Below are positions 8,757 to 31,012 of a stretch of 60,819 nucleotides of DNA, piece by piece (the first letter of the stretch is position 1; each line of letters begins with the position of its first letter). Under the pieces are notes generated by a model. The model was not told where the DNA came from. It worked only from the letters and a program-made list of their open reading frames with translations, and did not search any database. Source of the stretch: an uncultured Bdellovibrionales bacterium. GTDB lineage: Bacteria; Patescibacteriota; Minisyncoccia; Moranbacterales; UBA2206. Position numbers and translations under genes: made by a program. Location of the stretch: positions 54,037-114,855 of the forward strand of contig CAZJOI010000001.1 in NCBI GenBank assembly GCA_964547585.1. The letters are read 5' to 3'.

Positions 8757-8774
8757 AAATTATGTGAAATTTTC

Positions 8775-8993: not shown

Positions 8994-9014
8994 AAAAAGG
9001 AAGGAGAGAATGTC

Positions 9015-9335
9015 ATGTATATTTTTCAGAAGAAGAGAAATGGAGAGGTTTTGGAGATCTATGGTCCTAATGTCCCACTGGATCAGATATATGGTCGACT
9101 TGTCGACGGACTTGGCATAGGTTCGGGATGCAACTTGTTTAACGTATTAATGAAGATTGCGAATTTTGAAGAAAATTTGCATGTTGCATGGATTGAAAGC
9201 GTTGATTCCGGACATATTTTTTTCCGGAAAAAAACAGAAAATGTCAACATTCTAGGGCGCTTGGTTATCGAGATAAACGGAGATCTGGTCAAGCCCGAAG
9301 AAGCAGTGATGCACATGAGAATATGGTTACTCTGA
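9015..9335 (+). CDS. hypothetical protein
   Basis: 106-aa ORF preceded by AAGGAGA 8 nt upstream. No recognisable motif. Confidence 0.4.
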   Translation: MYIFQKKRNGEVLEIYGPNVPLDQIYGRLVDGLGIGSGCNLFNVLMKIANFEENLHVAWIESVDSGHIFFRKKTENVNILGRLVIEINGDLVKPEEAVMHMRIWLL

Positions 9336-9358
9336 TAAATATCAAGATCTGTTGATAA

Positions 9359-9396
9359 AAGCTAGTGGGAAACTCTGTTCTCGCTAGCTTTTTTCG
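9359..9396 (+). terminator. rho-independent terminator
   Basis: AAGCTAGTG..CGCTAGCTT stem followed by a T-run. Confidence 0.6.
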
Positions 9397-9411
9397 TTAT
9401 ATAATTATTGC

Positions 9412-10872: not shown

Positions 10873-10915
10873 CTTTGTGTTTGATGTTTTTTGAATTAGA
10901 ATATGATCTGTGCAG

Positions 10916-10969
10916 CTGTTTTATATTTTTTAGTCACGCCTTCGAAGCGAATTAAAAAATATAAAACAG
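10916..10969. repeat. perfect 17-bp hairpin with a GAAGCGAAT-containing loop (mini element G)
   Basis: CTGTTTTATATTTTTTA(10916-10932) pairs with TAAAAAATATAAAACAG(10953-10969). The loop is GTCACGCCTTCGAAGCGAAT. Confidence 0.7.
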
Positions 10970-10996
10970 GTACATAGATTTTAATAGAAGATGTAA

Positions 10997-11860
10997 ATGA
11001 AAAAGAAAAAAATAATTTATGGTGTAATATTGTTGCTTTTTGTTTTGGCGATTATTTTGGGCCTGATTATTTTTGGATCGAACAAAGATTTTTTGACTGT
11101 AAATTTTTTGGATGTTGGGCAGGGAGATGCAATCTTGATTAGCCAAGGCAAAAAACAAGTCTTGATTGACGGGGGACCTAGTGGACAAAAAATGATGGAA
11201 AAGTTGGGGACCTACGTGCCTTTTTGGGACAGAGAAATAGAAGTTATTCTGATTACTCATCCAGATAGCGATCATATTGAAGGCTTGGTAAGTGTTCTGC
11301 AAAACTACAAAGTGGATGTAATCATTGAGACTGATGTGGCTTCTGAATCAGCTGTCTATGCTAAACTTCAAGATTTGATCAAGGAAAAAAATATTCAAAA
11401 AATAAAAGGAACGCGCGGAACAAAAATAAAAATTAGCGAAAAAAATGAATTGGAGATTTTGAATTCGCAAGATGAAAATGCAGCTGCACAAAAAGAAACC
11501 AACTCCAGCAGTATCGTTTCCAAATTAACTGTGGGCAATGAAAAGTTTTTGTTTATGGGCGATCTGCCAAGCGAAAATGAGATCAAACTTATTTCTCAGA
11601 ATGTTGATTTGTCAGCTGAAATTTTGAAAGTGGGACATCATGGTTCAAAATATTCAACCAGTACTGATTTTTTGAATAAAGTTGGCCCAGAAGAAGCGGT
11701 AATTTCAGCTGGAAAAAATAATCGTTATGGTCATCCAGCCATGGAAACACTCGATCGTCTCAAAAACAAAAAAATCAATATCTTAAGAACCGATGTGGTG
11801 GGGGACATCATGTACGAATGCCACAGTTTATCCGAAAAATGCCATCTGATTGCTAACTAA
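10997..11860 (+). CDS. stand-alone ComEC-type metallo-beta-lactamase domain protein with N-terminal TM helix
   Basis: DVGQGDAILI, ITHPDSDHIEG and VGHHGS motifs, as in the C-terminal domain of full-length ComEC. Confidence 0.75.
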   Translation: MKKKKIIYGVILLLFVLAIILGLIIFGSNKDFLTVNFLDVGQGDAILISQGKKQVLIDGGPSGQKMMEKLGTYVPFWDREIEVILITHPDSDHIEGLVSVLQNYKVDVIIETDVASESAVYAKLQDLIKEKNIQKIKGTRGTKIKISEKNELEILNSQDENAAAQKETNSSSIVSKLTVGNEKFLFMGDLPSENEIKLISQNVDLSAEILKVGHHGSKYSTSTDFLNKVGPEEAVISAGKNNRYGHPAMETLDRLKNKKINILRTDVVGDIMYECHSLSEKCHLIAN

Positions 11861-11931
11861 AAAACTTTGTGCTAAATTAAACTTAATCGCAAAATGCTTA
11901 GGCATTTGCTAATAAATATTAATAAAATTTT

Positions 11932-12546
11932 ATGGAAAATCATCCAAGCAAAGAAAGAACATTGGTAATCATCAAGCCGGACGGAGTACAAAGAACTTTG
12001 ATCGGAGAAATTATCAAGCGCTATGAAAGAGTGGGTTTAAAAATGACTGCTCTGAAAATGCTCATTCCGACAGAAGATATGGCTATCAAACATTACTACG
12101 AAGTTGGCGGAGATGCATGGCTCGAAGAAGTTGGCCGAAAAGCCAGATTAGCCTATGAAAAAAAAGGTTTAACGTCTCCCTTTGCTACTAATATGGACAA
12201 CGGAAACGCAATTATGAAAAGTAATGCTAAATATTTGAGTTCGGGTCCGGTTATTGCGATGATTTGGCAGGGTAATCAAGCGGCAGCATTAGTCAGAAAA
12301 ATTACCGGAGGTACCGAACCATTGTCTTCTGATATGGGAACCATTCGAGGCGACTATACTTTGGATACCTATATGATGGCCGATCTGGACACCAGAAGCA
12401 TCCGTAATTTGATTCATGCTTCTGGAAATACCGAAGAAGCGGAAAAAGAAATTCCGATTTGGTTTAGGCCAGAAGAAATCTTGGAATACAGATTGATTCA
12501 AGAAAGCGTTTTGTATGATGTAAATTTGGATGGAATTCTGGAATAG
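11932..12546 (+). CDS. ndk: nucleoside-diphosphate kinase (long form)
   Basis: TLVIIKPDGVQR and NLIHASG (catalytic His). An internal insertion and a C-terminal extension distinguish it from typical Ndk proteins of about 140-150 aa. Confidence 0.85.
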   Translation: MENHPSKERTLVIIKPDGVQRTLIGEIIKRYERVGLKMTALKMLIPTEDMAIKHYYEVGGDAWLEEVGRKARLAYEKKGLTSPFATNMDNGNAIMKSNAKYLSSGPVIAMIWQGNQAAALVRKITGGTEPLSSDMGTIRGDYTLDTYMMADLDTRSIRNLIHASGNTEEAEKEIPIWFRPEEILEYRLIQESVLYDVNLDGILE

Positions 12547-12637
12547 AATGTTTGGGACAATGCCTCGACAAAAAAACAATTCATTTCGACCGCACTAGAT
12601 AAAAAAATAGGGCGGTCTTATTGAATAAAGCTGAGCT

Positions 12638-13219
12638 ATGAAAAACCATAAAATTATCGACAGAAAAATTGCGGAAATAATAAAAAACAACGGTGTGGGC
12701 GTTTTACCAACGGACACTTTGTTTGGCTTGGTTGGAAGTGCTTTTTCCAAGAAGGCGGTAGCGAAAATATATAAAATAAAAAAAAGAAATCCCAAAAGTC
12801 CTTGCATTATTCTGATTAGTGCAATCGATGATTTGGAAAAATTTAATATTCAACTGAATGAAAATTCCAAAGAATTTTTACAAAAAAATTGGCCAGGCAG
12901 AATCAGTGTAATTTTTGATTGTCCGGATAAAAAATTTGAATATCTTCATCGGGGTACAAAATCCTTGGCTTTTCGTTTTCCAAAAAAGACCAGCCTCATA
13001 AATTTAATCAAAAAAACGGGACCGCTGGTAGTGCCCAGTGCTAATCCGGAAAAAGAAAAGCCAGCCCAAAATATTACTGAAGCTCAAAAATATTTTGGAG
13101 ATCAAGTTGATTTTTATGTTTCGGGCAAAATAGCCAGTAAATTGCCATCAACTCTGGTTGAAATCAAAAATGGAAAAATTAAAGTTTTGCGAAAAGGCGC
13201 CGGAAAGATAAAAAGTTAG
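12638..13219 (+). CDS. tsaC: L-threonylcarbamoyladenylate synthase (YrdC/TsaC family)
   Basis: YrdC-domain pattern (LPTDTLFGLVG, K.R....P..IL, SANPEK). Confidence 0.7.
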   Translation: MKNHKIIDRKIAEIIKNNGVGVLPTDTLFGLVGSAFSKKAVAKIYKIKKRNPKSPCIILISAIDDLEKFNIQLNENSKEFLQKNWPGRISVIFDCPDKKFEYLHRGTKSLAFRFPKKTSLINLIKKTGPLVVPSANPEKEKPAQNITEAQKYFGDQVDFYVSGKIASKLPSTLVEIKNGKIKVLRKGAGKIKS

Positions 13220-13222
13220 AAA

Positions 13223-13256
13223 TAAAAAAATCCCCCCTTAGGGGGATGTTTTTTTA
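13223..13256. terminator. bidirectional terminator between convergent tsaC and rpmB
   Basis: A-run, then the ATCCCCCC-TTA-GGGGGAT hairpin, then a T-run. Confidence 0.65.
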
Positions 13257-13263
13257 AAGAATC

Positions 13264-13440
13264 TTATTTCTCGGTCTTGTTGGCAGTTTTAATGCATTTG
13301 GTACAAGCCTTTACTCTTTTGCCGTCCATCTTCTTTTTTTGAAGATTTATTCCAAAAGTTCGGAGAGTAGCAATGTTAGAATGGCTTCTTGAATTTCCAC
13401 TACCAGGTTTTCTTCCGCAGATTTCGCAAACTTTACTCAT
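13264..13440 (-). CDS. rpmB: 50S ribosomal protein L28
   Basis: [22 protein letters not shown].. is a typical L28 N-terminus. The longer ORF (to 13533) would add a hydrophobic, non-L28 extension. Confidence 0.8.
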
Positions 13441-13510
13441 ATATTTAATAGATTGATTTATTACAAAATTTAGGTTAACATAGAAAATAATAATTGGCAA
13501 GGAAAAGCAT

Positions 13511-14215
13511 ATGCTAAATGAAATTGTTCTCATTGTTATCTATTTTTTTATTCTGATATATTCCATTATTTTACATGAAGTGGCCCATGGTGTTATGGCG
13601 TCATGGCTCGGCGATAAAACGGCTGAATATGCTGGTCGAATCACGGCTAATCCGCTAAAGCATATTGATCCATGGATGACAATAGTCGTGCCTTTTTTGA
13701 TGCTGGTTTTGAGTGGTGGCAGATTTGCTTTTGGTGGAGCTAAGCCCGTTCCGTATAATCCTTATAACTTGAAAAATCAGAAATGGGGACCGGCACTGGT
13801 GGCTTTGGCTGGACCAGCTTCCAATATTGGCATAGCTGTGTTGGCTGTTATTTTGGCTAAAATCATTTCTCTGCCGATGAATGCAAAACTAGATATCATC
13901 AACAATATTCGTTTTGAAAGCGATTGGGGATCCTTGGCGACAGTTATTTCGGGTTCTTGGGGCACAATTTGTTTTACTTTTCTGACCATAATAATTTTTT
14001 GGAACATTTTACTAGCTGTTTTCAATCTGATCCCCATTCCACCACTCGATGGTTCCAAACTTCTATTTTCCATAATTCCCATTAAGATGGAAACAGTGGC
14101 CATTTTAGAGCAATTTGGTTTTATTTTTTTGATTATGCTAATTATCCTGTTTCCAGGTCCTTTTAGCTTTTTGCTAAACCTTTTTTGGTCAATATTTTTC
14201 AGTCTGACTGTCTAG
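13511..14215 (+). CDS. site-2 protease family (M50) membrane metalloprotease
   Basis: HEVAHG (HExxH) inside a TM helix and [10 protein letters not shown] later in the protein. Confidence 0.7.
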
Positions 14216-14238
14216 GGCGGTACCATTTTAGTGCGGAT

Positions 14239-14267
14239 TTGACACCCCTTAGAATATCGTTTATTAT
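14239..14267 (+). promoter_or_regulatory. sigma70-type promoter of the rpsL-rpsG-fusA operon
   Basis: TTGACA(14239-14244), a 17-nt spacer, then TATTAT(14262-14267). Confidence 0.55.
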
Positions 14268-14321
14268 TGTTTTGCTAGGTTGACTGGCGGTTTTTTAATT
14301 TATAAATATAATTTTTACAAA

Positions 14322-14741
14322 ATGCCAACGATAAATCAACTCAAGAAAAGACCAAGAAAAAAGACGGGTAAAAAAACCAAAACCTCGGCTTTTAAGAATG
14401 TTTTTAATACACTGAAAAATAGACCAGTAGCGACTCCTAGCCCCTACAAACGAGGTGTTTGTCTGAAAGTGGGTACAACTACGCCAAAAAAACCTAACTC
14501 AGCTTTACGAAAAATTGCCAGAGTTAAACTTACGAATGGAATGGAAGTTACCGCTTACATCCCAGGCATCGGACACAATCTGCAAGAGCACTCAATCGTA
14601 GTATTGCGTGGAGGTAGAGTGAAAGATCTGCCGGGTGTGAGATATCATGTTGTCAGAGGCGTTATGGACTGTGCCGGAGTTGCTAAGAGAAAAAGAGGTC
14701 GCAGTTTGTACGGAGCCAAGAGAGAAAAGAAAGCAGAATAA
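14322..14741 (+). CDS. rpsL: 30S ribosomal protein S12
   Basis: MPTINQL.. start and the [10 protein letters not shown] motif. The upstream TTG at 14280 is rejected. Confidence 0.95.
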
Positions 14742-14766
14742 ATTTTTATAACTTAAATAAAATTGC

Positions 14767-15234
14767 ATGCCAAGACGAAAAAGAATATTTAAAAAAGATT
14801 TAAAGCCTGATCAAAGATACAATAATTTATTGGTCAGTAAATTTACCAACAGCATTATGCTCAAAGGTAAGCGATCTGCTGCTGAAGGCATTATTTATGA
14901 TGCTTTTGATATTATTCACGAAAGAACTAAAAAGGGCGGATTGAATATTTTTGAACAAGCATTGAAAAATGTTTCTCCTCTAGTCGAACTGAAATCCCGA
15001 AGAGTCGGTGGAGCTAATTATCAAGTTCCAATTCCTGTTTCCGGTGAAAGAAGAACTACTTTGGCTATTCGTTGGTTGAAAGATGCTACTCGCAAGAAGA
15101 AAGGCAAGAAAACTGCTGAAAAATTAGCCGATGAACTTATTGATGCTTCAAATAAAATTGGCGCAGCTATGAAAAAAAGAGAAGACGTTCATAGAATGGC
15201 TGAAGCCAATAAAGCTTTTGCGCACTTCGCGTAA
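14767..15234 (+). CDS. rpsG: 30S ribosomal protein S7
   Basis: MPRR...DP.Y......KF.N..M..GKK..AE and a full-length S7 pattern. Confidence 0.95.
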   Translation: MPRRKRIFKKDLKPDQRYNNLLVSKFTNSIMLKGKRSAAEGIIYDAFDIIHERTKKGGLNIFEQALKNVSPLVELKSRRVGGANYQVPIPVSGERRTTLAIRWLKDATRKKKGKKTAEKLADELIDASNKIGAAMKKREDVHRMAEANKAFAHFA

Positions 15235-15357
15235 TTCTCTACGAATTATTAATTAGTATGAATATACTAATGGTATTCAAATTGACCTGTAAATAAATCA
15301 AATAAAATTTTAAAACGAATTCGTATATTAGTACTTGAATTCGCAATTAGTAACAAA

Positions 15358-17445
15358 ATGGCCAGGCAATACCCAATCGAAAAATATAGAAATATTGGAA
15401 TTATCGCTCACATTGATGCTGGAAAAACCACTACCACTGAGCGTATTTTGTTTTACACCGGAATTACTCATAAGATTGGGGAGGTGCATGAAGGTGAAGC
15501 TGTGATGGACTGGATGGAACAAGAAAGAGAAAGAGGCATTACCATTACCAGTGCCGCGACAACTTGTTTTTGGAAAGATCATCAAATCAATATTATCGAT
15601 ACTCCAGGGCATGTGGATTTTACTGTTGAGGTGGAAAGATCCATGCGTGTTTTGGACGGAGGCGTAGTTGTTTTTGATGGTAAAGAAGGTGTCGAGCCTC
15701 AATCAGAAACAGTTTGGAGACAAGCTGATAAGTATAATGTGCCCAGAATGTGTTTCATTAATAAGATTGATAAGGAAGGTGCTGATTTTTTCAGAGCTTT
15801 GGAAACAATCTGGAACAGACTTACTCCCAACGCTGTGGCTGTTCAAATCCCAATTGGAGAAAGAGGTGATTTTGCTGGCGTGGTTGATTTGATTAAAATG
15901 AAAGGCTTCACTTTTGAAGGTGAAATGGGAGAAAAAGTCATTGAAGGTGAAATTCCAGCTGAACTTTTGGATAAAGCTAAAGAATGGAGAGAAAAGATGG
16001 TGGAAAAAATAGCTGAAACTGATGAAAAATTGACTGAAAAATATTTAAGTGGCGAAGAAATATCTATTGAAGAGCTGAAAAAAGCTTTGCGTGCTGGAAC
16101 AATCAAGACAGCACTCGTGCCAGTATTCACTGGAACATCTCTGCGTAATAAAGGTGTGCAACTTGTTTTGGACGGCGTAGTTGATTATTTACCATCTCCA
16201 CTGGATGTGCCAGCGCTTGAGGGTATGGATCCAGAAAATAAAGACAAGAAAATTGAAGTAAAATCAGAAGACGGTGCGCCATTTTCCGCTTTGGCTTTCA
16301 AAGTGGCTACCGATCCGTTTGTTGGGCAATTAACATTTTTCCGAGTTTATTCAGGAACACTGAAGGCCGGATCATATGTCTTAAATTCATCTAAAAATGA
16401 AAAAGAAAGAATTGGTAGAATTTTGCAAATGCATTCTAATCATCGTGAAGAAATTCAAGAAATATATGCCGGAGGCATCGGTGCCTTGGTTGGGCTAAAA
16501 AATACAACGACCGGGGATACTCTTTGCGATGTTGATCATCCGGTTATTTTGGAATCCATTACTTTTCCAGAGCCAGTTATTTCCATTGCAGTTGAACCAA
16601 AAACAAAAGCCGATCAAGAAAAGATGGGCATGGCTCTCAAAAAATTGGCTGAAGAAGATCCAACTTTGCGTATCAGAACTGACGAAGAAAGCGGACAAGT
16701 TATTATTTCCGGAATGGGAGAACTGCATTTGGATATCATTGTTGATCGAATGAAAAGAGAATTCAAAGTGGAAGCCAATATCGGTCAACCACAAGTCGCT
16801 TATCGTGAAACAATTAAATCCGAATCCCAAGCCGAAGGAAAATATATCAGACAATCTGGAGGACGCGGACAATACGGACATGTTTGGATTAAGGTTGAAC
16901 CAGGAGAAGAAGGCAAGGATTTTGAATTTGTTAATCAGATTAAAGGTGGTGTTATTCCTCAGGAATATATCACACCAATTGGCAAAGGAATCAAAGAGGC
17001 GATGGATAATGGTGTTTTGGCTGGGTACCCATTGGTTGGAATTAAAGCGACTCTCTATGATGGATCTTACCATGATGTGGATTCCTCAGAAGCAGCTTTC
17101 AAAATTGCTGGCTCAATGGCTTTAAAGGAAGCTGCGAGACGAGCCAATCCGATTATTATGGAACCAATTATGAAGGTGAATGTTATTACTCCAGAACAAT
17201 TTATGGGAGATGTAGTGGGTGATATCAATTCCAAGCGAGGTATGATTAAGGAAATGGGTGATCGCGGCGAAGGTAATGCCAGAGTGAAAGTTATTGATGC
17301 CGAAGCACCACTAGCCTCTATGTTTGGGTACGCGACACAACTCCGTTCGATGACTCAAGGCCGAGCGAGCTATGTAATGGAATTTGATCATTACAGTGAA
17401 GTTCCCAAGTCTATGGCGGAAGAAATTATGGGAAACAAAAAGTAA
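15358..17445 (+). CDS. fusA: elongation factor G
   Basis: [20 protein letters not shown] and NKID GTPase motifs. 695 aa. Confidence 0.95.
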
Positions 17446-17460
17446 AGTCTTTCTAGCTGA

Positions 17461-17493
17461 AACAGTCTCGATTAAGTCGGGGCTGTTTTTTTA
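17461..17493 (+). terminator. rho-independent terminator after fusA
   Basis: AACAGTC..GGCTGTT stem followed by a T-run. Confidence 0.6.
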
Positions 17494-17537
17494 TTTTTTG
17501 AAATATGATAGAATAATGCTATAAATTCAAAAAATAT

Positions 17538-18176
17538 ATGGACAAAAAAAATAAAATATTTTTTATTGTATTCCTCCTATTAATTATTGGTTCTGTTGGA
17601 GCTACCTATTATCGCACGATGATTAAAAAGGATTATATGATTTCAGCTCAAATCGATTGTGATCCTTACACAGAAAAATGTTTTATTTGGGAATGTGATC
17701 CGACTTCAACGGTGGAAGGGGAGGCTTGTACTGGTGAACTAGAGAATGATATTTGGTATTACCAAATTGTTGAAAGAAGAGCCTATAATATTCCATCTTG
17801 TGATCCAAATGATGAAAATTGTGAAGCTTTGGTTTGTCCTGAGGGTGAAGAAGATTGCGATGTGATTTTTTGCAATGAGGAAAATAAAGTTGAGCAAGGC
17901 GTTGAATGTAGTGACCCTGTCCAATATGCCATTGATAATCCAGAAGAAGAAGAGGAGGCAGAAGAATGTGAAGAAGGAGATGAGGAGTGCCTAGCTTCCG
18001 AAGAAGAGGCTTCTGAGTGCGAAGAGGGAGATGAAGAATGTTTGGCCGCTGAAGAAGAGGACGGAGAAGAAGATGCAGCAGCCGAGGAAACAGAAGCTGC
18101 TGACGAGGAAGGCGAAACTGAAACCGAAGGTGAAGCACCTACTGTAAACTCAGTTTTCCCAGTGGATAAAAATTAA
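17538..18176 (+). CDS. membrane-anchored Cys-rich protein with an acidic repeat tail
   Basis: N-terminal TM helix, many Cys residues (CDPYTEKCFIWECDP..) and the tandem repeat ECEEGDEECLA(S/A)EEE. Confidence 0.5.
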   Translation: MDKKNKIFFIVFLLLIIGSVGATYYRTMIKKDYMISAQIDCDPYTEKCFIWECDPTSTVEGEACTGELENDIWYYQIVERRAYNIPSCDPNDENCEALVCPEGEEDCDVIFCNEENKVEQGVECSDPVQYAIDNPEEEEEAEECEEGDEECLASEEEASECEEGDEECLAAEEEDGEEDAAAEETEAADEEGETETEGEAPTVNSVFPVDKN

Positions 18177-18299
18177 AAAAGATCTTTTGTATAAAACCTA
18201 AAAGCCCCACCTTAGGTGAGGCTTTTAAATACTTCCATTTTCCTGTAATTGGGGATAGAATCTAGGTAAGAATAATAATATTTTAAAGAAGGTGATTTT

Positions 18300-19349
18300 A
18301 TGAAAAAATACAAATCCAGAGTAGTAAAAGTTGGCCCATATCTTTTGGGTGGCAATAATCCAGTGCGGGTGCAATCGATGTGCACGACTGATACGCGTGA
18401 TGTGGTGGCAACTGTCAAACAAATTTTGGCTTTGGAAAAAGCTGGTTGTGAAATTATTCGTGTGGCGGTGCCGGATATGGCAGCAGCCAAAGCCATTGGT
18501 CAGATAAAAAAGAAAATTCATATTCCCTTAGTGGCAGACATTCATTTTGATTATTTGCTGGCGCTGGAGTGCGTGAAACAAGGCATAGACAAAATCAGAA
18601 TTAATCCGGGTAATATTGGTTCCAAAGAAAAAGTTGAAGCGGTGGTCAAAGCTTGCAAAGCCAAAAAAATTCCCATTCGCATTGGTGTGAATGTTGGATC
18701 AATTGAAAAAGATTTGCTCAAAAAATATGGACCAACTCCGAAAGCGGCGGTGGAATCTGCTCTGCGTCATGTGAAAATTCTGGAAGATTCGAAATTTTAT
18801 GATATTCTAGTTTCCATTAAATTCAGCGATGTGCCACAACTTGTGGAGGGTTATCAGTTGCTTTCTCAAAAAATTAATTATCCCTTGCATCTCGGAGTAA
18901 CTCATGCCGGAACTGTCTACGTGGGTACTCTTAAAAATGCCATTGGTATCGGCATCCTTCTGCATGAGAGAATTGGAGCCACAATTCGCGTTTCTTTGAC
19001 GGCTGATCCGTGTGAAGAGGTCAAGGCTGGTTTTGCCATCCTGAACGCCGTAGGGGTCAGAAAACATGGTCCAGAACTCATTGCTTGTCCAACTTGCGGA
19101 AGAACAGAAATTGATCTTATTGGTCTGGCCGAAAAAGTGGAAAAATTTTTGGTTGGCATTAAAAAACCTCTGAAAGTAGCCGTAATGGGTTGCGTGGTTA
19201 ATGGCCCTGGGGAAGCGCGCGAAGCGGATATTGGTATTGCCGCTGGAAAAAAATGCGGCGCCATTTTCGTTAAAGGCAAGGTTTTACGAACCGTGAATGA
19301 AGACAAACTTCTCTCAGAATTTCTCAAAGAAATTAAAAAAATTTCCTAA
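18300..19349 (+). CDS. ispG: 4-hydroxy-3-methylbut-2-en-1-yl diphosphate synthase
   Basis: GcpE pattern (VQSMC.TDT, RV.V.D, INPGN) and C-terminal CPTCGR..GCVVNGPGE. Confidence 0.9.
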   Translation: MKKYKSRVVKVGPYLLGGNNPVRVQSMCTTDTRDVVATVKQILALEKAGCEIIRVAVPDMAAAKAIGQIKKKIHIPLVADIHFDYLLALECVKQGIDKIRINPGNIGSKEKVEAVVKACKAKKIPIRIGVNVGSIEKDLLKKYGPTPKAAVESALRHVKILEDSKFYDILVSIKFSDVPQLVEGYQLLSQKINYPLHLGVTHAGTVYVGTLKNAIGIGILLHERIGATIRVSLTADPCEEVKAGFAILNAVGVRKHGPELIACPTCGRTEIDLIGLAEKVEKFLVGIKKPLKVAVMGCVVNGPGEAREADIGIAAGKKCGAIFVKGKVLRTVNEDKLLSEFLKEIKKIS

Positions 19350-19466
19350 CATTGAACGTTGGGAAATTTTGAATCCTAGAGAAATATCTCTTGGAAAATA
19401 GATGATTCTATGGTAATGTGCAGGAAAGGGAACCGCTTTTTTTGAGATAATTTTAAATTATTTCTT

Positions 19467-21092
19467 ATGGATAGTGCAATAGATAAAAATATTACAGATT
19501 TAAAAGATTTGGTTTTTAGTTATTACGCGAATAAAATTGAAAAAAGAGATGTGCACTTTCTTTTTGTCATTCATCTTACGCGTACCATGGAAGTATATAT
19601 AGAAGATTGGTTGAAAAATTTTCAAAGTGTGGGGATAATTTCTATTCCATATTCAGAAATACCAGAAGTGAAAGAGAAATTAGGGAAACAGACTAAGATT
19701 TATAGTCCAAAAGATGTATCAGAAATACCCGATCTTATATTTGAAATTTGTAATTCTCATCCTGATAAAAGTATTTGTCTAGTAGAGATAGGTGGATATT
19801 CCGCCTTGATGGAAAAAGACCCAGGTAACATAGTTGGATCTGTGGAAGATACTAATCAGGGATACTGGAACTTCAAAAAATATGAGTCAAGACTTAAGTT
19901 TCCAGTTATTAGCATTGCTCAAACTAATTTAAAAAACATTGAGAATAGATTTGTTGGAACTTCCATAAGTTATTCATTGGAGAAATTCGTCAGAAAGCAC
20001 TTTAATAAAGATCTCATAGCCATGAAAAATATTTTGGTTATGGGATATGGAGAAATTGGTCGGGGAACAGCCCAAAAGTTAAAAAGCACATTGGCCAATG
20101 TGTATGTTTATGATAGTGATCCTATAAATGTTATGTTGGCGAGGATTGATGGTTTTAACATAGCGGATAAAATATTTGCTATTGCTCAAGCCGATATAAT
20201 AATAGGAGCTACGGGACAGAGATCTTTGCAGATAAGCGACGTTGATTATTTGAAAAACAATGCTCTTCTGGCTAGTGCTTCGTCTAAGCAAGTTGAATTT
20301 CCCATGAATGAATTGAAGCAGTGCATGACTTATGAAAGTAAATATCTGAATTCCTATAAAAATAAAAATGGAACTTTTCATGTTGCTTATAACGGATTTC
20401 CTATAAATTTTATTGATGACTCTGCTTTCGGAGAAGTTTTTGATATCGTGATGTCAAGTCTTTTGTTGGCGGTCGATAACCTTTTGGAGTCCAAACCATT
20501 ACCTAGGGTATATGACTTGGAATTGAGATTGCAACAAGAGGTGGTAAGAAAATATTTTGAGTTGTATGAAGTAGATGATTATGAAAAATTTCTTTTTGTG
20601 GAAGAGGCCAAGAAAGAAAGGCATGATGCATCGAGTGCAATAGTGGTAAGCAAAAAATACAGAGATGAATTAATGGTTTTACTCCTAAAACATGAAAAAA
20701 TTGGTAAATGGATTCCTGTTGGAGGACACGTGGAAAGATTTGAATCTCCGGAGAGTGCTGTTATTCGAGAGTTGGGAGAGGAAATCGGAGTTACTCCTTT
20801 TTATTGGTTTGATAAAAATTCGAAAATTTGGTCTTCTTTGCCGATTCTTTTTGAAGAAAAAATGGAAGAAATTCCAGCTCCCGAAGGAGGAACAACTCAC
20901 TTTCATCGTGATTTTATTTTTGTAGCCATAATTGATTATTGCCTGGAAGAAAATTTTGTTGGCGAATCTAAAGAAAGAATAAAATGGTTTACGCTAGACG
21001 AAATATTTAAGCTTAATCCCGATGAAACTACACCAGAAACACTGGATCTGATCAGAGAGATAGAAAAATTCAAAAAAGAATTATTAAGATAA
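19467..21092 (+). CDS. fusion of a divergent S-adenosylhomocysteine-hydrolase-like fold with a C-terminal Nudix hydrolase domain
   Basis: Residues about 30-330 are collinear with AdoHcyase. Pairs (this protein vs AdoHcyase): HLTRTMEVYIE vs HMTVQTAVLIE; VEDTNQG vs SEETTTG; NILVMGYGEIGRGTAQKL..DSDPINVMLARIDGF vs VAVVAGYGDVGKGCAQAL..EIDPINALQAAMEGY. The C-terminus carries the Nudix box GGHVERFESPESAVIRELGEEIGV. Confidence 0.6.
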   Translation: MDSAIDKNITDLKDLVFSYYANKIEKRDVHFLFVIHLTRTMEVYIEDWLKNFQSVGIISIPYSEIPEVKEKLGKQTKIYSPKDVSEIPDLIFEICNSHPDKSICLVEIGGYSALMEKDPGNIVGSVEDTNQGYWNFKKYESRLKFPVISIAQTNLKNIENRFVGTSISYSLEKFVRKHFNKDLIAMKNILVMGYGEIGRGTAQKLKSTLANVYVYDSDPINVMLARIDGFNIADKIFAIAQADIIIGATGQRSLQISDVDYLKNNALLASASSKQVEFPMNELKQCMTYESKYLNSYKNKNGTFHVAYNGFPINFIDDSAFGEVFDIVMSSLLLAVDNLLESKPLPRVYDLELRLQQEVVRKYFELYEVDDYEKFLFVEEAKKERHDASSAIVVSKKYRDELMVLLLKHEKIGKWIPVGGHVERFESPESAVIRELGEEIGVTPFYWFDKNSKIWSSLPILFEEKMEEIPAPEGGTTHFHRDFIFVAIIDYCLEENFVGESKERIKWFTLDEIFKLNPDETTPETLDLIREIEKFKKELLR

Positions 21093-21184
21093 AATATATT
21101 TCGTACCCTATCTATCCTGGCCATAATTTTCTATGCAATTCTTATGTATATTTTTTGAAAGACGTAGGGATTAAATTGTTTTTT

Positions 21185-21357
21185 AAAAAGGCTTATGAAG
21201 GCCTTTTTGCTTACCTCGGATTAGGCATAATTTTATTGAAATGCTTAAAATAAGCCATTTGTTGTCTTTTTTTTGACAAAGTAAGTCCTCAGGTGTATAT
21301 TCTAAAGTCAGTCGATTTTGACTGAAAGTTCTTAAAAAATCATAAAAAGAAGGAGGT
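21185..21357 (+). promoter_or_regulatory. repeated terminator/operator/promoter/5' UTR module, copy P1
   Basis: AAAAAGGC..GCCTTTTT hairpin. Palindromic ATGCTTAAAATAAGCCAT at 21241-21258. TTGACA(21273-21278), 17 nt, TATATT(21296-21301) with a TGt extended -10. UTR hairpin TCAGTC..GACTGA. AAGGAGGTG. Confidence 0.6.
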
Positions 21358-21430
21358 GAAAAAGCGAGGCTTAGCGGTTAATGTGTTGGCACGAAAAGAA
21401 ATCTCTAACCCAGCAGAGGAGGTATGTATC

Positions 21431-22168
21431 ATGGAAAAATCATCTAATGCTTTTGAGCTTGCTCAGTACTTTGGGCAACAGGTGGAGGTAAAAACAAGGG
21501 TTGGACTCTTCAACGGATTCGTTATCAAGAGCTGTGAAGGACTCAATGCTTATGTCAGGGGAGAAATTATTAATGAATTTTTTCCGATGACAGTTGCAGC
21601 CTTTAGGCAGCGTTTTAACAATGAGTGGTTCCGCAGTGCGGTTGAACAACGAATGTTTAACTCGGATGTCTTGATTCTTGTTTTCGACGAGAAACAGCAG
21701 GGAGTTGGAGTTTGGGTTTTTGATGAGATTGAAATCAAGTATGACGTATATAATAAATGGGGGATATATGTTGCTATGATTTCTATCCGTCAAGAATACC
21801 AATGTATCGGTATGCACAAGGGTCTTCTGGATGTTTCGCATCATCATACAGTGAGAGGTCATTTCGACTTTACCATTTGTCGGACGCAAAATCCGATTGT
21901 GGCTACTGCTTGGTGGAATAAGTATGGCAATGTTTATCCTCTCGCCAACGAACCGGATGAAGATATAAAGGTTGTTGGAAGAATTACTGCCAAGAGAGTA
22001 GGATTTGACCATGCATACGAATCAAATCATATGATTGCTAGGGGCGTATATAATGGTGAATCTCTCCACGGCGAACCTTTTCATGTAGACAATTGTCTAG
22101 ACGGAAAGCTGTTTAATCTTATCGATTACCGCAAGGGGGACGCTGTAGTTTTGGTGTCTAGGGCTTGA
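21431..22168 (+). CDS. hypothetical protein, possibly GNAT-like acyltransferase fold
   Basis: The ATG at 21431 has GAGGAGG 8 nt upstream. The ORF track starts at GTG 21356, inside the module's SD. VAMISIRQEYQCIGMHKGLL resembles GNAT motif A. The gene is visibly more GC-rich than its neighbours. Confidence 0.45.
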   Translation: MEKSSNAFELAQYFGQQVEVKTRVGLFNGFVIKSCEGLNAYVRGEIINEFFPMTVAAFRQRFNNEWFRSAVEQRMFNSDVLILVFDEKQQGVGVWVFDEIEIKYDVYNKWGIYVAMISIRQEYQCIGMHKGLLDVSHHHTVRGHFDFTICRTQNPIVATAWWNKYGNVYPLANEPDEDIKVVGRITAKRVGFDHAYESNHMIARGVYNGESLHGEPFHVDNCLDGKLFNLIDYRKGDAVVLVSRA

Positions 22169-22259
22169 TAACTGTTTAAAAATAAGGGAGGTGTCCATTT
22201 TGGAAAATATAATTACATCGGGAAGTCGCATGACTTTCCCACAGACCAAGGTGTAATGA

Positions 22260-22290
22260 GGGATTCAGTCAGAATGATGAATCCCTTTTT
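22260..22290 (+). terminator. rho-independent terminator
   Basis: GGGATTCA..TGAATCCC stem followed by TTTTT. Confidence 0.6.
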
Positions 22291-22296
22291 ATATTT

Positions 22297-23094
22297 CTAA
22301 AATAAATTTAATTTACTTTTGCTGGCAGTAATTGCCAAAATTCCCTTATAACTTTCTTCTCCCACGAAGATAGGATAAAATTCTTTGTTTGATCTTATTT
22401 TTTTTCCAGCGGAACATCCAATGGTTGCATCTTTTTTTATTAACTTAAAGTTTTTGACATTTTTGCTGGTTTCAAAAAGCAGAGGAACTTTATAGGAGAC
22501 GCCAACGGTATATAGTTCCTTTTTGTCATGTAGTATCACGGGTCCTTTAATCATGCCTAAGTTTTTTAGAACCGTCATGATTTCAAGCAAGGCTTTTCTG
22601 TAATTAGCCCCCTTTTTGTCTGGACCATATTCAATGGCCAGTCCAATTTTTGCAAATCTTATCATCTCTCCTCCACCAAAAACATTTTTTCTTATCAAGG
22701 CTACATTTTTGCAGGGGACCAGACGCAAAAGATTTTTAGTTGTTTTTTGTAGATTAGTGACAATCACAATCCGATCAAAGTCAGAAGTTGTGGCATGAAT
22801 ATCAATTACGATATCCGAGTCTTCAATCTCCTTGCTTATGCAGTAGGCCAAGCGTTCTTCGTAGTTTCCATTTTTCTTTCCGGGGAAAGAGCGATTAAGA
22901 TCCTTGGTTATCATTCTTTGCTTTTTTTGCATAGCTTTCTCATTAGCAATAATTAGTTTCAGTGATCCTTTCAGTAGATCTACTTTCTTCAATTCGTCTA
23001 TGACTTTTTTGCCAATTACCTCGTCGCCATGTAAACAGCCAACAATGGAGACCAGTGGTTTGCCTTGTCCAATTTTTGTAATATTGAGTCTCAT
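22297..23094 (-). CDS. succinylglutamate desuccinylase/aspartoacylase (AstE/AspA) family zinc deacylase
   Basis: IVGCLHGDEVIG, DLNRSFPG and IDIHATT motifs. Confidence 0.7.
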   Translation of the reverse strand: MRLNITKIGQGKPLVSIVGCLHGDEVIGKKVIDELKKVDLLKGSLKLIIANEKAMQKKQRMITKDLNRSFPGKKNGNYEERLAYCISKEIEDSDIVIDIHATTSDFDRIVIVTNLQKTTKNLLRLVPCKNVALIRKNVFGGGEMIRFAKIGLAIEYGPDKKGANYRKALLEIMTVLKNLGMIKGPVILHDKKELYTVGVSYKVPLLFETSKNVKNFKLIKKDATIGCSAGKKIRSNKEFYPIFVGEESYKGILAITASKSKLNLF

Positions 23095-23293
23095 AAAGTT
23101 AGATTAAAAATTAAAACGACCTCGTTTGGGAAGGTCGGTTGTTTGCTTATTTTTGAAATATCTAAAGCCGACCTCTATCAATAGGTAAAGAAAAAAGAAA
23201 AGAAGAAGTTGCCTTTTAGTGATATTTTATTCATAATTTTATCTTGAGGCAAGTATATCAAGTTTGCCAGAAAAAGCAAATAATTATTTTTTT

Positions 23294-23444
23294 AAAGGCT
23301 TTGATATGCCTTTTTTGTTTGCCTTGGGTTGGGGATAATTTTATTAAAATGCTTAAAATAAGCCATTTTTGTCTTTTTGTTATTGACATTTTTGTTGGAC
23401 GAGTTATTATAATGATAGCTTGATTAATTTTGAGCTTGATTAAT
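23294..23444 (+). promoter_or_regulatory. repeated module copy P2 upstream of the small peptide gene
   Basis: AAAGGC..GCCTTT hairpin. ATGCTTAAAATAAGCCAT at 23349-23366. TTGACA at 23383-23388 and TATAAT at 23408-23413. Direct repeat AGCTTGATTAAT x2 at 23417-23428 and 23433-23444. Confidence 0.55.
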
Positions 23445-23461: not shown

Positions 23462-23566
23462 ATGAAGACAAAAAAAGCCAAATCAGAAAAAAGCCAAATA
23501 AAGGAGATTGTAAGACTAAGAGTTGGTAAGCACACTTGCTCTACTTGTTCAGGAGGACACAAATAG
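23462..23566 (+). CDS. 34-aa Lys-rich peptide with a C-terminal HTCSTCSGGHK (candidate RiPP precursor)
   Basis: My translation is MKTKKAKSEKSQIKEIVRLRVGKHTCSTCSGGHK. It is not in the supplied ORF track (too short). It lies behind module P2 and 211 nt upstream of the radical SAM/SPASM gene. Confidence 0.35.
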   Translation: MKTKKAKSEKSQIKEIVRLRVGKHTCSTCSGGHK

Positions 23567-23777: not shown

Positions 23778-24872
23778 ATGATTATAGAATGTTCAAAAAA
23801 TAAATACGAAGTATTTTTTGAAATGATTCAATTTGAAATTACTGGAAAATGCAATATGAAATGTGACCATTGTCGAGCGTGGAAAGAGCCAAAGGGCCAC
23901 ATGAAAATGGAAGTTATAGAGAAGGTATTGGATTTTGCTGTACCCGAATCAAGACATGAAATTAGATTTACGATTTCAGGAGGCGAGCCATTACTCAATC
24001 CTCATTTTTTTGATATTCTAAAATTAATAAAGAAAAAAATTAATCAATACGGAAAGAGACTTGATCATGCAGTTATTACAACCAATGGATCTCTTCTAAC
24101 ATCAGAAATAATTAAAAAAATAGAAGATCTTGATTTGGGGGAAATATTTTTGCAAGTCAGCATCGACAGTTTCGAGGCTGAAATACATGATAAATTCCGT
24201 CATTTTCCAGGTGCTTTTTATAAAGCCAAGAAGGCACTGGAAATGGTTGCAAAATCGAAATTGACTCCATTGTTACGAACAACAATTGTTTCAGGAGATG
24301 CAAAAAATGACTTTCGTATATTAGAAGAGATGATAAAAATGGCTCAAGAAACTGGGGTAGGAAAAATTAGTTTTGGGCCGGTGATTCCTACTGGTAAAGC
24401 GCAAATGAATCAAGGTATAATGCTGAAACCACTTGAAAAAAAAGCTTTTATAAAAAAGCTTTTAGTCCTTAAGCAAAAATATCCAAACATTGGCATATCC
24501 ACAGAAGATCCAGTCAAATTTTCTGTTTGTCCAAAAGAATGGGATTTTGGAGAATTTGATTATTCGAAATCTGATTTTATTGGTGGTTGCTCGGCAGGTG
24601 TAACTAATATGAATGTTTTTTCAAATGGAATTATTACTCCGTGCTCTATGTTGCAAGAGCCAATTGTAAATGTTATAGGAAAATCTTCGAGTCAAATTTA
24701 TAAAGAATATATTTCTTCTGATGTTATAAAAAATCTTGTAGAAAGAAATGTTGGTGGTAAGTGTAAGACATGCAGCATCAAAAGACTGTGTGGAGGGTGT
24801 AGGGCTGCTGCTGAAGGAATATCTGGAAACTATTTGGCTGAAGATCCGACATGTTGGAAAGTAAGGAAATAA
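23778..24872 (+). CDS. radical SAM enzyme with C-terminal SPASM domain
   Basis: CNMKCDHC (CxxxCxxC) near residue 25. SPASM-type C-x12-G-x4-C (CSAGVTNMNVFSNGIITPC), then CKTCSIKRLCGGC and a final C. Confidence 0.85.
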   Translation: MIIECSKNKYEVFFEMIQFEITGKCNMKCDHCRAWKEPKGHMKMEVIEKVLDFAVPESRHEIRFTISGGEPLLNPHFFDILKLIKKKINQYGKRLDHAVITTNGSLLTSEIIKKIEDLDLGEIFLQVSIDSFEAEIHDKFRHFPGAFYKAKKALEMVAKSKLTPLLRTTIVSGDAKNDFRILEEMIKMAQETGVGKISFGPVIPTGKAQMNQGIMLKPLEKKAFIKKLLVLKQKYPNIGISTEDPVKFSVCPKEWDFGEFDYSKSDFIGGCSAGVTNMNVFSNGIITPCSMLQEPIVNVIGKSSSQIYKEYISSDVIKNLVERNVGGKCKTCSIKRLCGGCRAAAEGISGNYLAEDPTCWKVRK

Positions 24873-26970: not shown

Positions 26971-27020
26971 ATGAAGAGGCTTTTTTTGTTTGCTTTGGAT
27001 CGGACATAATTTTGTGATAA
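26971..27020 (+). repeat. degenerate partial copy (P3) of the repeated module
   Basis: ATGAAGAGGCTTTTTTTGTTTGCTTTGGATCGGACATAATTTTGTGATAA aligns with the first third of P1, P2 and P4. The palindromic site and TTGACA are missing. Confidence 0.4.
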
Positions 27021-27096
27021 TTTTTTAAATGTCTACATTGAAAATGTAAAAGAATATTAATCGTATTACAATACAAAGGAATAAATATAAAAAATT

Positions 27097-30102: not shown

Positions 30103-30127
30103 AAAAGGGCAAATTTAAAAATATACC

Positions 30128-30310
30128 AAAAAAAGCTTTAAAATAGCTTTTTTTGTTTGCCTAGAATTAGGCATAGTTTTATCAAGATGCTTGAAATAAG
30201 CCATTTGTTGTCTTTTTGCTTTGACAAAATGGTCATTTGGGTGTATACTTACAAATCAGTCAATAATGACTGACAGTACCTAAAAAATCAAACAAAATGG
30301 AGGTGTCGCG
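30128..30310 (+). promoter_or_regulatory. repeated module copy P4
   Basis: AAAAAAAGC..GCTTTTTTT hairpin. GCCTAGAATTAGGC. ATGCTTGAAATAAGCCAT at 30187-30204. TTGACA(30221-30226), 17 nt, TATACT(30244-30249). UTR hairpin TCAGTC..GACTGA. GGAGGTG lies 5 nt before the ATG. Confidence 0.6.
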
Positions 30311-31012
30311 ATGAACGGTTTAGAGAAAGCCGCGAAATTCGCGGCGAAAGTGTTATTTTTAGCGGTAATTATTGTAGTGGCAACAGCTGACCTTAATGAC
30401 TGGTTTGTTGTTGCTGTATTGCCGATTATTATTGCAAGTTGGCAATTTATTCGGAGAAAATTTATATTAGTTACTGGCATATTGCTCTATGAGAGAATAA
30501 CAACTTTAATCTCAAGAGCACCGGATGTTTTGGCTGTTATTCTTTTGTTGAATGGGATGCATTTTGTGGTAGTATTTTTCATTAGTTTTATGATAAATAT
30601 TATCATGTATACAGCATTCATTAAGGGATATTATTTTCTTCCTGATTTTAAGGAAACTCTGGAAGAATTCAATGCCTTTAAAAAGAAGCAAATAGTTTGG
30701 ATAGAGTATGGATGGGAAGGATTAATGAGCTGGTTATGGGACAAGTCCTCTCAGTGGGTTTTGAAAAATAAAACACTGATGTTTCTTGTAGGCAGTCCAA
30801 TTTTTTTCGATCCAGACTGGGTAACATTCATTTTGGTGGAGGGAACTGAGATCAAAAAAAAGGACTTAATTTGCATTACACTTCCCTCTGTGTTTGTTTC
30901 AACAATCTTCTGGACTTCAGTATGTGTGCTGGGTGTTTATGGATTTTGGTCATACGACGATATGATAGCAAGAATCTACGAACACTTTGTCCATATGATT
31001 ATTAGAACTTAG
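30311..31012 (+). CDS. hypothetical multi-pass membrane protein
   Basis: 233 aa with about 6 hydrophobic helices and a strong SD. No recognisable family. Confidence 0.5.
   Translation: MNGLEKAAKFAAKVLFLAVIIVVATADLNDWFVVAVLPIIIASWQFIRRKFILVTGILLYERITTLISRAPDVLAVILLLNGMHFVVVFFISFMINIIMYTAFIKGYYFLPDFKETLEEFNAFKKKQIVWIEYGWEGLMSWLWDKSSQWVLKNKTLMFLVGSPIFFDPDWVTFILVEGTEIKKKDLICITLPSVFVSTIFWTSVCVLGVYGFWSYDDMIARIYEHFVHMIIRT

Follow-up and report, generated by a model that had tools for sequence, protein, structure and literature searches.

In this study, we analyzed a 60.8-kb stretch of DNA (contig CAZJOI010000001.1, positions 54,037 to 114,855; hereafter the window) and a module of approximately 180 nt that recurs in it, the first copy of which lies at 21185..21358. 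We believe that this module is probably one expression cassette, which is native to the gene of a 180-aa membrane protein carrying the motif NYPLY (hereafter NYPLY) and which has been copied before unrelated genes in a locus that differs between strains. This reading starts from direct observations, namely the copies themselves, the pattern of constrained positions, the orthology with the front end of the NYPLY gene in relatives, and the strain haplotypes with their junctions.

All coordinates are those of the whole window, and the four places that carry the cassette, named c1, c2, c3 (a fragment) and c4, are all on the + strand. In an unbiased direct-repeat search, the largest repeat family of the window was formed by 21174-21273, 23282-23381 and 30120-30219 (70-76% ungapped identity per 100 nt), and a separate 52-nt family added 26979-27030. 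The full cassette is present as c1 (21185..21358), which is 100% identical in the strain types V and X described below, and as c4 (30128..30345), which reaches the first 12 codons of a 233-aa open reading frame (ORF). Only the left block is present in c2 (23287..23388), and c3 (26979..27030) is a 52-nt fragment after thrS, with a profile E value of 0.007-0.02. Pairwise identity was 84.5% over 103 nt for c1 and c2, 82.5% over 97 nt for c2 and c4, 77% over 178 nt for c1 and c4, and 77% over 52 nt for c3 and c2. The most conserved 20-mer, ATGCTTRAAATAAGCCATTT, occurs three times in the window against 0.03 expected, and with up to 3 mismatches allowed, the first motif, TTTGCCTNGNATTAGGCATANTTTTAT, is likewise found three times, against 0.00 expected.

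A preliminary description of this DNA, made from the letters alone, had proposed near-identical modules dispersed before unrelated accessory genes. A repeated module before unrelated genes does exist, in three copies and one fragment, but the copies are 75-85% alike rather than near-identical, and instead of being dispersed they all lie inside 9 kb of the window, in which a profile built from the four cassette sequences found only these four known places. The extents were revised as well. The second copy had been drawn up to 23444, whereas the homology stops at 23388 and the sequence past the -35 box is unrelated; the degenerate fragment, placed before at 26971-27020, has its true extent at 26979-27030 and a right flank with no cassette similarity. 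The fourth copy starts at 30128 as described, but instead of ending at 30310 it runs past the Shine-Dalgarno (SD) sequence and the ATG to a GC-rich palindrome at 30329-30345. The fragment c3 holds the 3' arm and T-run of the terminator, a degenerate first palindrome and the left edge of the second palindrome; it has no promoter part, and its terminator hairpin is incomplete, as the 5' arm is absent. We read c3 as the relic of a rearrangement junction. The idea of a decayed full-length copy reaching the start codon of the HAD gene was rejected, since the right flank scores no better than shuffles. One contig of the same population (L032) stops inside c1, as is expected at a repeat.

From left to right, the cassette consists of an A-run/hairpin/T-run terminator (T1), approximately 65 nt of upstream sequence, a sigma-70 promoter, a stem-loop, an A-rich stretch and a strong SD sequence. 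In c1, T1 lies at 21185-21208, a weak first palindrome at 21212-21227, the second palindrome (palindrome 2) with its AAGCC box at 21241-21258, and a T-rich stretch at 21259-21272; these are followed by the -35 box (21273-21278), the -10 box (21296-21301), the 5' stem-loop (21308-21325), TAAAAAATCA (21333-21342) and the SD sequence GGAGGTG (21352-21358). In c4, the same parts are T1 (30128-30155), a perfect palindrome TGCCTAGAATTAGGCA (30158-30173), palindrome 2 (30187-30204), the T-rich stretch (30205-30217), the -35 box (30221-30226), the -10 box (30244-30249), the stem-loop (30256-30273), TAAAAAATCA (30281-30290), the SD sequence (30299-30305) and an ATG at 30311, and the 12 common codons contain the palindrome GCCGCGAAATTCGCGGC (30329-30345). 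In c2, T1 (23294-23313), palindrome 2 (23349-23366) and the T-rich stretch are followed by TTGACA (23383-23388). The promoters are TTGACA-17-TATATT at 21273-21301, TTGACA-16-TATTAT at 23383-23410 and TTGACA-17-TATACT at 30221-30249. All three have near-consensus hexamers with a spacer of 16 or 17 nt, the hexamers are conserved among the paralogues, and these are the only sites with 11 of 12 sigma-70 matches in the 10.3 kb from 20.9 to 31.2 kb, so that the TTGACA and TATA-type boxes named before are confirmed as the three best promoter matches there. The leader hairpin TCAGTC-N6-GACTGA is exact at 21308-21325 and 30256-30273, and TAAAAAATCA and GGAGGTG are present in both of these copies, again as described.

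We then counted invariant columns per segment in an alignment of c1, c4 and the full copy of the sister strain (type V), and compared each segment by Fisher's test with a reference class made of the promoter spacer, discriminator, hairpin loop and linker, in which 15 of 36 columns are invariant. The parts set a priori as functional, that is, the -35 and -10 boxes, the stem arms and the SD sequence, have 29 invariant columns out of 31 (6e-6). The same holds for palindrome 2 with its T-rich flank (28/31, 3e-5) and for TAAAAAATCA (10/10, 9e-4), so that the constrained part of the upstream sequence is its promoter-proximal half, ATGCTTrAAATAAGCCATTTGTTGTCTTTTT. The first palindrome (TGCCT..AGGCA) has only 11 of 18 invariant columns, which is not significant (0.25). 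Of the two upstream palindromes proposed earlier, the one beginning with ATGCTT thus proved constrained, and the one beginning with TTGCCT did not. Because of this pattern of invariant columns, we believe that the cassette is a functional promoter-leader unit, as far as comparison of sequences can tell.

Each leader folds as a hairpin of 7-8 bp that begins 6-7 nt past the -10 box, and the stem differs only once, with GGCTGA instead of GACTGA in the sister strain, a change that retains a U-G pair on the + strand. T1 in c1, c2 and c4 has a stem of 6-10 bp followed by a T-run, as in intrinsic terminators, and its hairpin is kept through compensatory changes (GGC/GCC versus AGC/GCT). In a search against Rfam 15, only the two tRNAs of the window reached the gathering score, and nothing near the cassette had an E value below 1. 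Three candidates on the minus strand were tried and rejected. For a small RNA ending at a bidirectional terminator there is no minus-strand promoter, c2 diverges where one would be, and the fold z-scores are weak on all copies except c4. Small ORFs of 32-43 aa (30138-30236 and 23258-23389) are shifted in frame by 1-nt indels from copy to copy, and c1 lacks a start codon there. A sigma-54 promoter in palindrome 2 (TGGCTT-N5-AAGCA, with GG/GC spacing) has a poor match to the -12 TTGC, loses its GC in the relative L044, and would fire into the terminator.

The native home of the promoter was recognized through the NYPLY gene, which encodes a membrane protein of Candidate Phyla Radiation (CPR) bacteria and usually lies near a histidine-kinase gene. 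NYPLY belongs to no Pfam family; its homologues, at 57-92% identity, occur in many metagenomes, and none was found in viral contigs. In relatives, this gene natively begins with the right block of the cassette, which reaches from the promoter into the first ~12 codons. We examined the upstream regions in L044 (NYPLY 85% identical; order IspG, cassette, NYPLY), L042 (78%) and L023. TTGACA and GGAGGTGTYGCRATG are kept upstream of NYPLY in all three and GGTGTATAMT in L044 and L042, and a box of the form wTGCTTnnnnTTrAGCCA (in L044, GTTT for GCTT) lies upstream of the -35 box. A stem-loop starts 6 nt past the -10 box, and its sequences are unrelated: L044 has TTGACTT..AAGTCAA, and the stems of L042 and L023 are 14 and 10 bp long, respectively. 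Because the structure is kept while the sequence changes, the leader hairpin is an RNA feature preserved by compensatory evolution. L044 also has a recognizable left block, with ~65-67% identity across the whole cassette, and the full cassette including the left block stands intact before NYPLY in strain V and in L044.

The profile also detected cassette-like regions, from the box through the SD sequence, before serS in L023 and before the gene of a 304-aa membrane protein in L022. The latter protein is unrelated to NYPLY, and its promoter closely resembles the NYPLY promoter of L023, the stretch from the -35 box to the leader, for instance, being identical. Because these cassette-like promoters head unrelated genes, reuse of a NYPLY-type promoter appears to have happened repeatedly in this clade. 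Across all orthologous regions TTGACA is kept, and the -10 box in most. The preliminary description had suggested a check of whether orthologous modules accompany the same gene families in related genomes; there, promoter, leader, SD sequence and AAGCC box were found before NYPLY, and cassette-like regions before serS and the 304-aa gene. The GC-rich palindrome GCCGCGA-NNN-TCGCGGC occupies NYPLY codons 7-13, with conserved arms and a variable centre (30329-30345; L030:15194-15210; also L044, L042 and L023), and it uses GCC and GCG Ala codons in a genome of 35% G+C. The similarity between NYPLY and the 233-aa ORFan stops directly after it. This palindrome may form a hairpin in the mRNA or mark a hotspot of recombination.

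The genes behind the copies are not paralogous. The order is an AdoHcyase-like/NUDIX region, c1, a 270-aa gene, an AstE-like gene (-), c2, a 34-aa peptide gene, a radical SAM (rSAM)/SPASM-like gene, thrS and c3, followed by HAD, an amidohydrolase (-), AdoMetDC-spermidine synthase, c4, the 233-aa hydrophobic protein, SET and the histidine kinase. The protein served by c1 (245/270 aa, 21415..22168, +) has no Pfam, NCBIfam or PADLOC match. It has a second SD sequence, GAGGAGGT, at 21415-21422, and its true ATG is likely at 21431; the cassette SD sequence GGAGGTG of c1 is probably vestigial, and the 75 nt between that sequence and the ATG show weak collinear similarity to NYPLY codons 3-11, which 67 of 3000 shuffles equaled. 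The 233-aa ORFan behind c4 (30311..31012, +) gave no homologue beyond itself in a protein-database search and shares only its first ~12 residues with NYPLY. It has no similarity to the 245/270-aa protein, and the peptide and rSAM proteins belong to other families. The TTGACA at the end of c2 is part of a different promoter (-10 TATTAT, 23405-23410) for the 34-aa peptide, rSAM and thrS genes; c2 lies between divergently oriented genes, and no gene on the + strand is there for T1 to terminate.

From other samples, exact-protein look-ups recovered contigs of this population, which showed that the locus exists in three arrangements, and that the segment 23365..32348 is strain-variable. The arrangement of the window (type W, 8.96 kb) recurs in the independent assemblies L034, L009 and L010. 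Type V (L030 and L033) is 99.95% identical to the window over 8300-23388 and 99.7% identical again from 32349, inside the histidine-kinase gene; between these it has 3.27 kb with the right block of the cassette, NYPLY, purD, a divergent SET gene and the N-terminus of the histidine kinase. Where c2 sits in the window, type V has a full cassette, the left 82 nt of which equal c2 up to ...AAGCC, while the right part (promoter, hairpin, TAAAAAATCA, SD sequence, ATG and the palindrome GCCGCGAAATTCGCGGC) shares 83-86% identity with c4, and the 180-aa NYPLY protein follows directly. NYPLY and purD are absent from type W, and exact-protein look-ups found neither thrS nor rSAM in type V strains. In type X (L040 and L041), the flank is 97.6% identical and the right block is 100% identical to that of V over 93 nt, and exactly the 95-nt left block is swapped for 4.35 kb with a DUF2268 gene, two rSAM genes and a NUDIX gene; the junctions lie past ...GCAAATAATTA (window 23286) and immediately 5' of TTTGACAAG. 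The haplotype junctions are thus at 23286|23287, at 23364|23365 and directly ahead of TTTGACA. Left and right blocks also show discordant kinship among the copies (informative sites 10:7 versus 2:16, Fisher 0.0045). This discordance, together with strain junctions that coincide with the block boundaries, indicates that the copies still undergo recombination or gene conversion with each other. Directly to the right of the variable segment, at 33575-35233, lie genes of the RhuM family (PADLOC candidate PDC-S05) and of the NUDIX type (PDC-S07), and the rSAM genes of the variable inserts have weak viperin-like matches. The strain-variable locus may be a defence or accessory island.

Promoter reuse accounts for these data most simply: the complete NYPLY 5' region, with terminator, box, promoter, leader and SD sequence, was probably copied before the 270-aa gene as c1. 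In c4, the cassette would have been kept before an ORFan that replaced NYPLY just past the GC palindrome, and c2 would be a recombined copy, whose left block now stands ahead of another promoter, that of the peptide/rSAM/thrS operon. Transcription would start near 21308 and 30256, so that the stem-loop stands at the very 5' end of the mRNA and may stabilize it, and the AAGCC-box region may act as an upstream promoter element, through contact with a protein or with the C-terminal domain of the RNA polymerase alpha subunit, or as a weak second terminator. The copies would have arisen by homologous recombination or gene conversion among each other, leaving unrelated genes with the same expression signals.

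Promoter reuse has been described before. Putative mobile promoters (Matus-Garcia et al., Nucleic Acids Research 2012, as cited in PMC3575422) are defined as sequences of at least 50 nt with at least 80% identity upstream of non-paralogous genes (Nijveen, Matus-Garcia & van Passel 2012, PMC3575422). The pairs c1-c2 and c2-c4, with the identities and lengths given above, fall within this definition, and the genes downstream are non-paralogous. Here, as there, similar upstream regions precede non-homologous genes of one genome with no tie to a known mobile element, and relatives have related promoters before other genes as well. In contrast to those cases, the donor gene can be named, the unit spans a terminator, a 5' stem-loop, an SD sequence and once the first 12 codons, and the copies lie close together in a single strain-variable locus, where haplotype junctions coincide with their edges.

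The surface-protein families vsp, vlp and vsa of Mycoplasma likewise share a conserved promoter, leader and N-terminal codons among membrane-protein genes that otherwise differ, in a locus prone to recombination and in a bacterium with a reduced genome. Unlike them, the present locus shows no recombinase, invertible segment or homopolymer tract, most of its downstream genes are neither paralogues nor lipoproteins, and housekeeping genes of the thrS type are included. Stem-loops at the 5' terminus stabilize mRNA in the leaders of E. coli ompA and B. subtilis aprE and ermC. The cassette hairpin resembles these in that it lies within a few nt of the predicted 5' end and keeps its structure while its sequence drifts; it differs from them in that its stabilizing role is a prediction, and the RNA-decay enzymes of CPR bacteria are uncharacterized. 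Almost nothing is known experimentally about promoters, leaders and gene regulation in CPR bacteria (Patescibacteria). The cassette offers here a well-delimited and comparatively validated promoter-leader unit (-35, -10, stem-loop, A-rich tract, SD sequence and AAGCC box) that is ready for reporter assays, a concrete case of a reused promoter with a nameable donor gene, and a view of gene-content turnover among strains that are 97.6-99.95% identical in the flanks.

Some points weigh against this reading. The start sites and the hairpin function are predictions, and the direction of copying, that is, which copy is ancestral, was inferred from five lineages. Approximately 70 kb of a genome of probably ~1 Mb were inspected, so that more copies may exist elsewhere. 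The conservation among paralogues could partly reflect gene conversion instead of purifying selection. The AAGCC box may not be a single kind of element, since its distance to the -35 box varies: it is mostly 17-19 nt, but 10 nt in L042 and about 46 nt (to the main -35) before serS in L023. The similarity between the c2 promoter and the peptide promoter of the relative L023 was not significant (219 of 3000 shuffles), and the candidate of a conserved native peptide promoter was therefore set aside as suggestive only.

Among the other explanations, a dedicated DNA-binding protein deserves the most attention. It would bind ATGCTTrAAATAAGCCAT at about -59, in class I geometry, and co-regulate all copies, which is compatible with an origin by duplication; we consider this possible but doubtful. 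In its favor, palindrome 2 with its T-rich flank varies as little as the core promoter does, AAGCC is unchanged throughout the 8 promoter regions aligned from 5 lineages and precedes the -35 box in every related promoter region examined, and the palindrome centre was measured about 58-60 nt upstream of the expected start site, in agreement with the ~60 nt noted before. Against it, AAGCC is the sole invariant part of palindrome 2: across lineages the right half TTrAGCCA is kept and palindromy is lost, the left half being absent in L022 and before serS in L023. The distance to the -35 box is variable, as given above. Both substitutions in the palindrome (A>G in c4 and A>G in type V) still allow a G-U pair on the + strand, as would be expected of an RNA hairpin more than of a symmetric operator. 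The motif was absent outside cassette homologues in the window, apart from two matches with one mismatch, both in genes and within the range of chance. There is also no candidate regulator nearby, and the neighboring histidine kinase has no adjacent DNA-binding response regulator.

If a regulon operator were at work, its motif should recur in otherwise unrelated promoters and both half-sites should be conserved at a fixed distance in orthologous promoters; neither was seen, the former within the window. GCTTA-N3-TAAGC, TGCCTA-N4-TAGGCA and TCAGTC-N6-GACTGA never occur in the window outside homologues of the whole cassette, which argues against an independently recruited operator and for common descent of one intergenic region. 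An NrdR and a LexA-like S24 protein are present, and the cassette is, as we presume, unlike the binding sites of NrdR and of LexA-type proteins. With a CRP-type class I site, to which the palindrome had been likened, the cassette shares an imperfect palindrome centred about 58-60 nt upstream of the start, but in sequence it has no relation to the CRP consensus, its orthologues do not preserve the palindromy, the spacing varies, and the regulator was not found.

The proposal that one DNA-binding protein co-regulates these loci was therefore not supported in the window, in which no candidate regulator was found, and both a dedicated regulator and a genome-wide regulon are unproven. For the functional link drawn between the GNAT-like protein, the peptide/rSAM pair and the membrane protein, reuse of a promoter in a strain-variable locus is the better reading. 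What survives of shared control is the conservation of promoter, stem and SD sequence (29/31 versus 15/36): because the genes behind the copies share a promoter, they very probably share expression signals and are likely co-expressed. For the constrained 31 nt upstream of the promoter, their position and conservation make a contact with protein, either an activator or the RNA polymerase alpha subunit, plausible, and a weak second terminator or insulator is the alternative. A palindrome-binding dimer is not favored, because the palindromy is lineage-specific, the substitutions are G-U compatible on one strand, and the motif never stands alone. If the AAGCC box does bind a protein, it would reveal a regulatory circuit, of which these reduced genomes have few.

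It is also conceivable, though unlikely, that the cassette, chiefly its 95-nt left block, is a recombination module used by single crossover or by an unidentified site-specific recombinase, in an integron-like array of gene blocks, each flanked by direct repeats, without a visible integrase. The layout alternates as this would predict (c1, the 270-aa and AstE genes, c2, peptide-rSAM-thrS, c3, HAD to SpdS, c4); in L044 nothing lies between IspG, the cassette and NYPLY, the three left-side haplotype junctions are all at cassette boundaries, the 4.35-kb insert of type X replaces the left block exactly, and a ComEC competence gene lies at 9412-10872. There would then be a slight chance of a gene-shuffling platform without an integrase, with the cassette as its working part, in which any incoming or excised segment bearing a copy can integrate at a resident copy by single crossover. 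Such a segment would arrive with an insulating terminator, a strong promoter, a stabilizing leader and an SD sequence, and the locus would work like an integron through homologous recombination and natural competence, generating the haplotypes W, V and X. However, a Pfam scan of 40 ORFs of the 60.8-kb window detected no domain of an integrase, transposase or recombinase; the scan took in all ORFs of 110 aa or more between 18.3 and 35.7 kb, but not several of those in 12-17, 40-46 and 55-59 kb. The junctions lie at four cassette positions (the block start, after AAGCC, before TTGACA and the centre of palindrome 2), which leaves no fixed core site, and the right end of the difference between W and V is inside the histidine-kinase gene, as ordinary homologous replacement predicts. 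No recent integration event is visible, since the copies are only 75-85% alike, and the blocks hold housekeeping genes on both strands. Like the attC sites of integrons and the Vibrio cholerae repeats, the copies are direct repeats of ~100 nt with imperfect palindromes between the blocks of a strain-variable array. Unlike them, they have no IntI-type integrase beside the array, they carry a promoter and sit 5' of genes, and they separate multi-gene blocks on both strands with junctions that are not at one core site.

That the left block acts as RNA, either as a tandem terminator or insulator of three hairpins, each followed by a U-rich run, or as a read-through attenuator, seems to us rather improbable. 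The compensatory changes in the T1 hairpin and the G-U compatible substitutions in palindrome 2 on the + strand speak for it. A terminator scan also marked TGCCTAGAATTAGGCA with TAGTTTTAT as terminator-like, and in L044 and before serS in L023 a hairpin with a T-run behind it has the AAGCC box as its 5' arm (AAGCCAAAAATTGGCTTTTT and AAGCCTTTTGATGGCTTTTT). Set against this, the left block folds no more stably than its shuffled versions (z -0.0 to -1.0, + strand), the first palindrome is not conserved (11/18), the box has no pairing partner or U-run in L042, L022 and before NYPLY in L023, and in c2 and type V there is no upstream + strand gene to terminate.

A miniature transposable element (MITE, REP or Correia-like) or the end of a known mobile element with a promoter would fit the size (100-190 nt), the intergenic position and the presence of both terminator and promoter, but it is very improbable, as the copies lack terminal inverted repeats and target duplications (apart from the internal hairpins, the only complementarity is that of low-complexity A/T sequence), stand in one orientation within 9 kb, match nothing in Rfam or, by BLAST, in 72,556 plasmids or 50,697 phages, and have a right block whose orthologue in relatives is the native promoter of a gene. 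Correia, ERIC and REPIN elements can carry a terminator and a promoter (PMC3575422), and the cassette is like them a short intergenic repeat able to supply both; it differs in its four clustered copies, its orthology to a resident promoter and its lack of terminal inverted repeats and target duplications. For the conserved 20-mer, IMG/VR gave no match, and a scan of 185,579 species genomes and of the JGI metagenome contigs gave only single, unrelated matches due to chance. The preliminary description had allowed that the copies might be ends of a known mobile element; no such element was found, and that view is largely refuted.

The window is cellular DNA of 32-39% G+C with IspG, EF-G, EF-Tu, ribosomal proteins, SecY, thrS and glycolytic enzymes. 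The closest matches of ThrS are metagenome proteins with at most 83% amino acid identity, and the named ones, at ~64-71%, are from Moranbacteria, Parcubacteria and other Patescibacteria, because of which we take the host to be a CPR bacterium. The 34-aa peptide MKTKKAKSEKSQIKEIVRLRVGKHTCSTCSGGHK (23462-23566) has a C-terminal VRVGKHTCSTCSGGHK that is conserved in the relative L023 (4934-5041), and an rSAM/SPASM-like maturase (23778-24872; L023 5178-6266) and thrS follow the peptide gene in both genomes. Peptide and maturase look like a conserved pair of the ribosomally synthesized and post-translationally modified peptide (RiPP) kind, tied to thrS in this CPR clade. At 23117-23137 (-), in the leader of the AstE/aspartoacylase-like gene and ~20 nt before its start codon, there is a terminator-like hairpin with a T-run (CGACCTTCCCAAACGAGGTCG TTTTAATTTT), which may be an attenuator.

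The window holds other repeats. A second, unrelated family of ~110 nt is found at 38129-38245, 38878-38996, 46620-46742 and 52581-52702, directly upstream of rplC (L3), rplD (L4), rpsE (S5) and a GalT-like gene, with a partial copy (47843-47887) before secY; in the relative L019 (20440-20560, -), a member with 90% identity over 63 nt lies upstream of SHMT. RNAalifold pairs UGCUCAUAUUUGU with ACAAAUAUGGCA, by which the start codon is sequestered, and compensatory changes occur in every copy (CATATTTGT/ACAAATATG, CATTTTTGT/ACAAAAATG, CATAATTGT/ACAATTATG and CATTTTTTT/AAAAAAATG). This family has no Rfam match even at E < 5 and looks like an undescribed cis-regulatory leader in CPR bacteria; the listed ORF starts, as well as the L019 gene call, at the internal ATG of GGATGCTCAT are probably wrong.

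Two tandem units of 77 nt, 96% identical, stand at 60240-60387 right before a tRNA gene (60388-60460). The sister contig L025 appears one unit short, so that the number of units seems to vary between strains. The same contig carries a diversity-generating retroelement at 6918-8551, ~2.4-4.0 kb past murD (the end of which is window 60172) and downstream of murD and tRNA genes; it consists of a bAvd accessory protein and a reverse transcriptase, with an Lcl_C-domain protein ahead. Short repeats rich in GTTTGTAG or AGTTnGTAG, together with AAAACTAAAAAC runs, are found at 40001-40038, 42639-42723, 43571-43617, 44306-44389 and 56037-56074, in the intergenic spaces of the ribosomal-protein and glycolysis clusters. 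Finally, three 38-nt GAA/GAG-rich repeats at 17946-18088 encode an acidic repeat region in a 212-aa protein (17538-18176).

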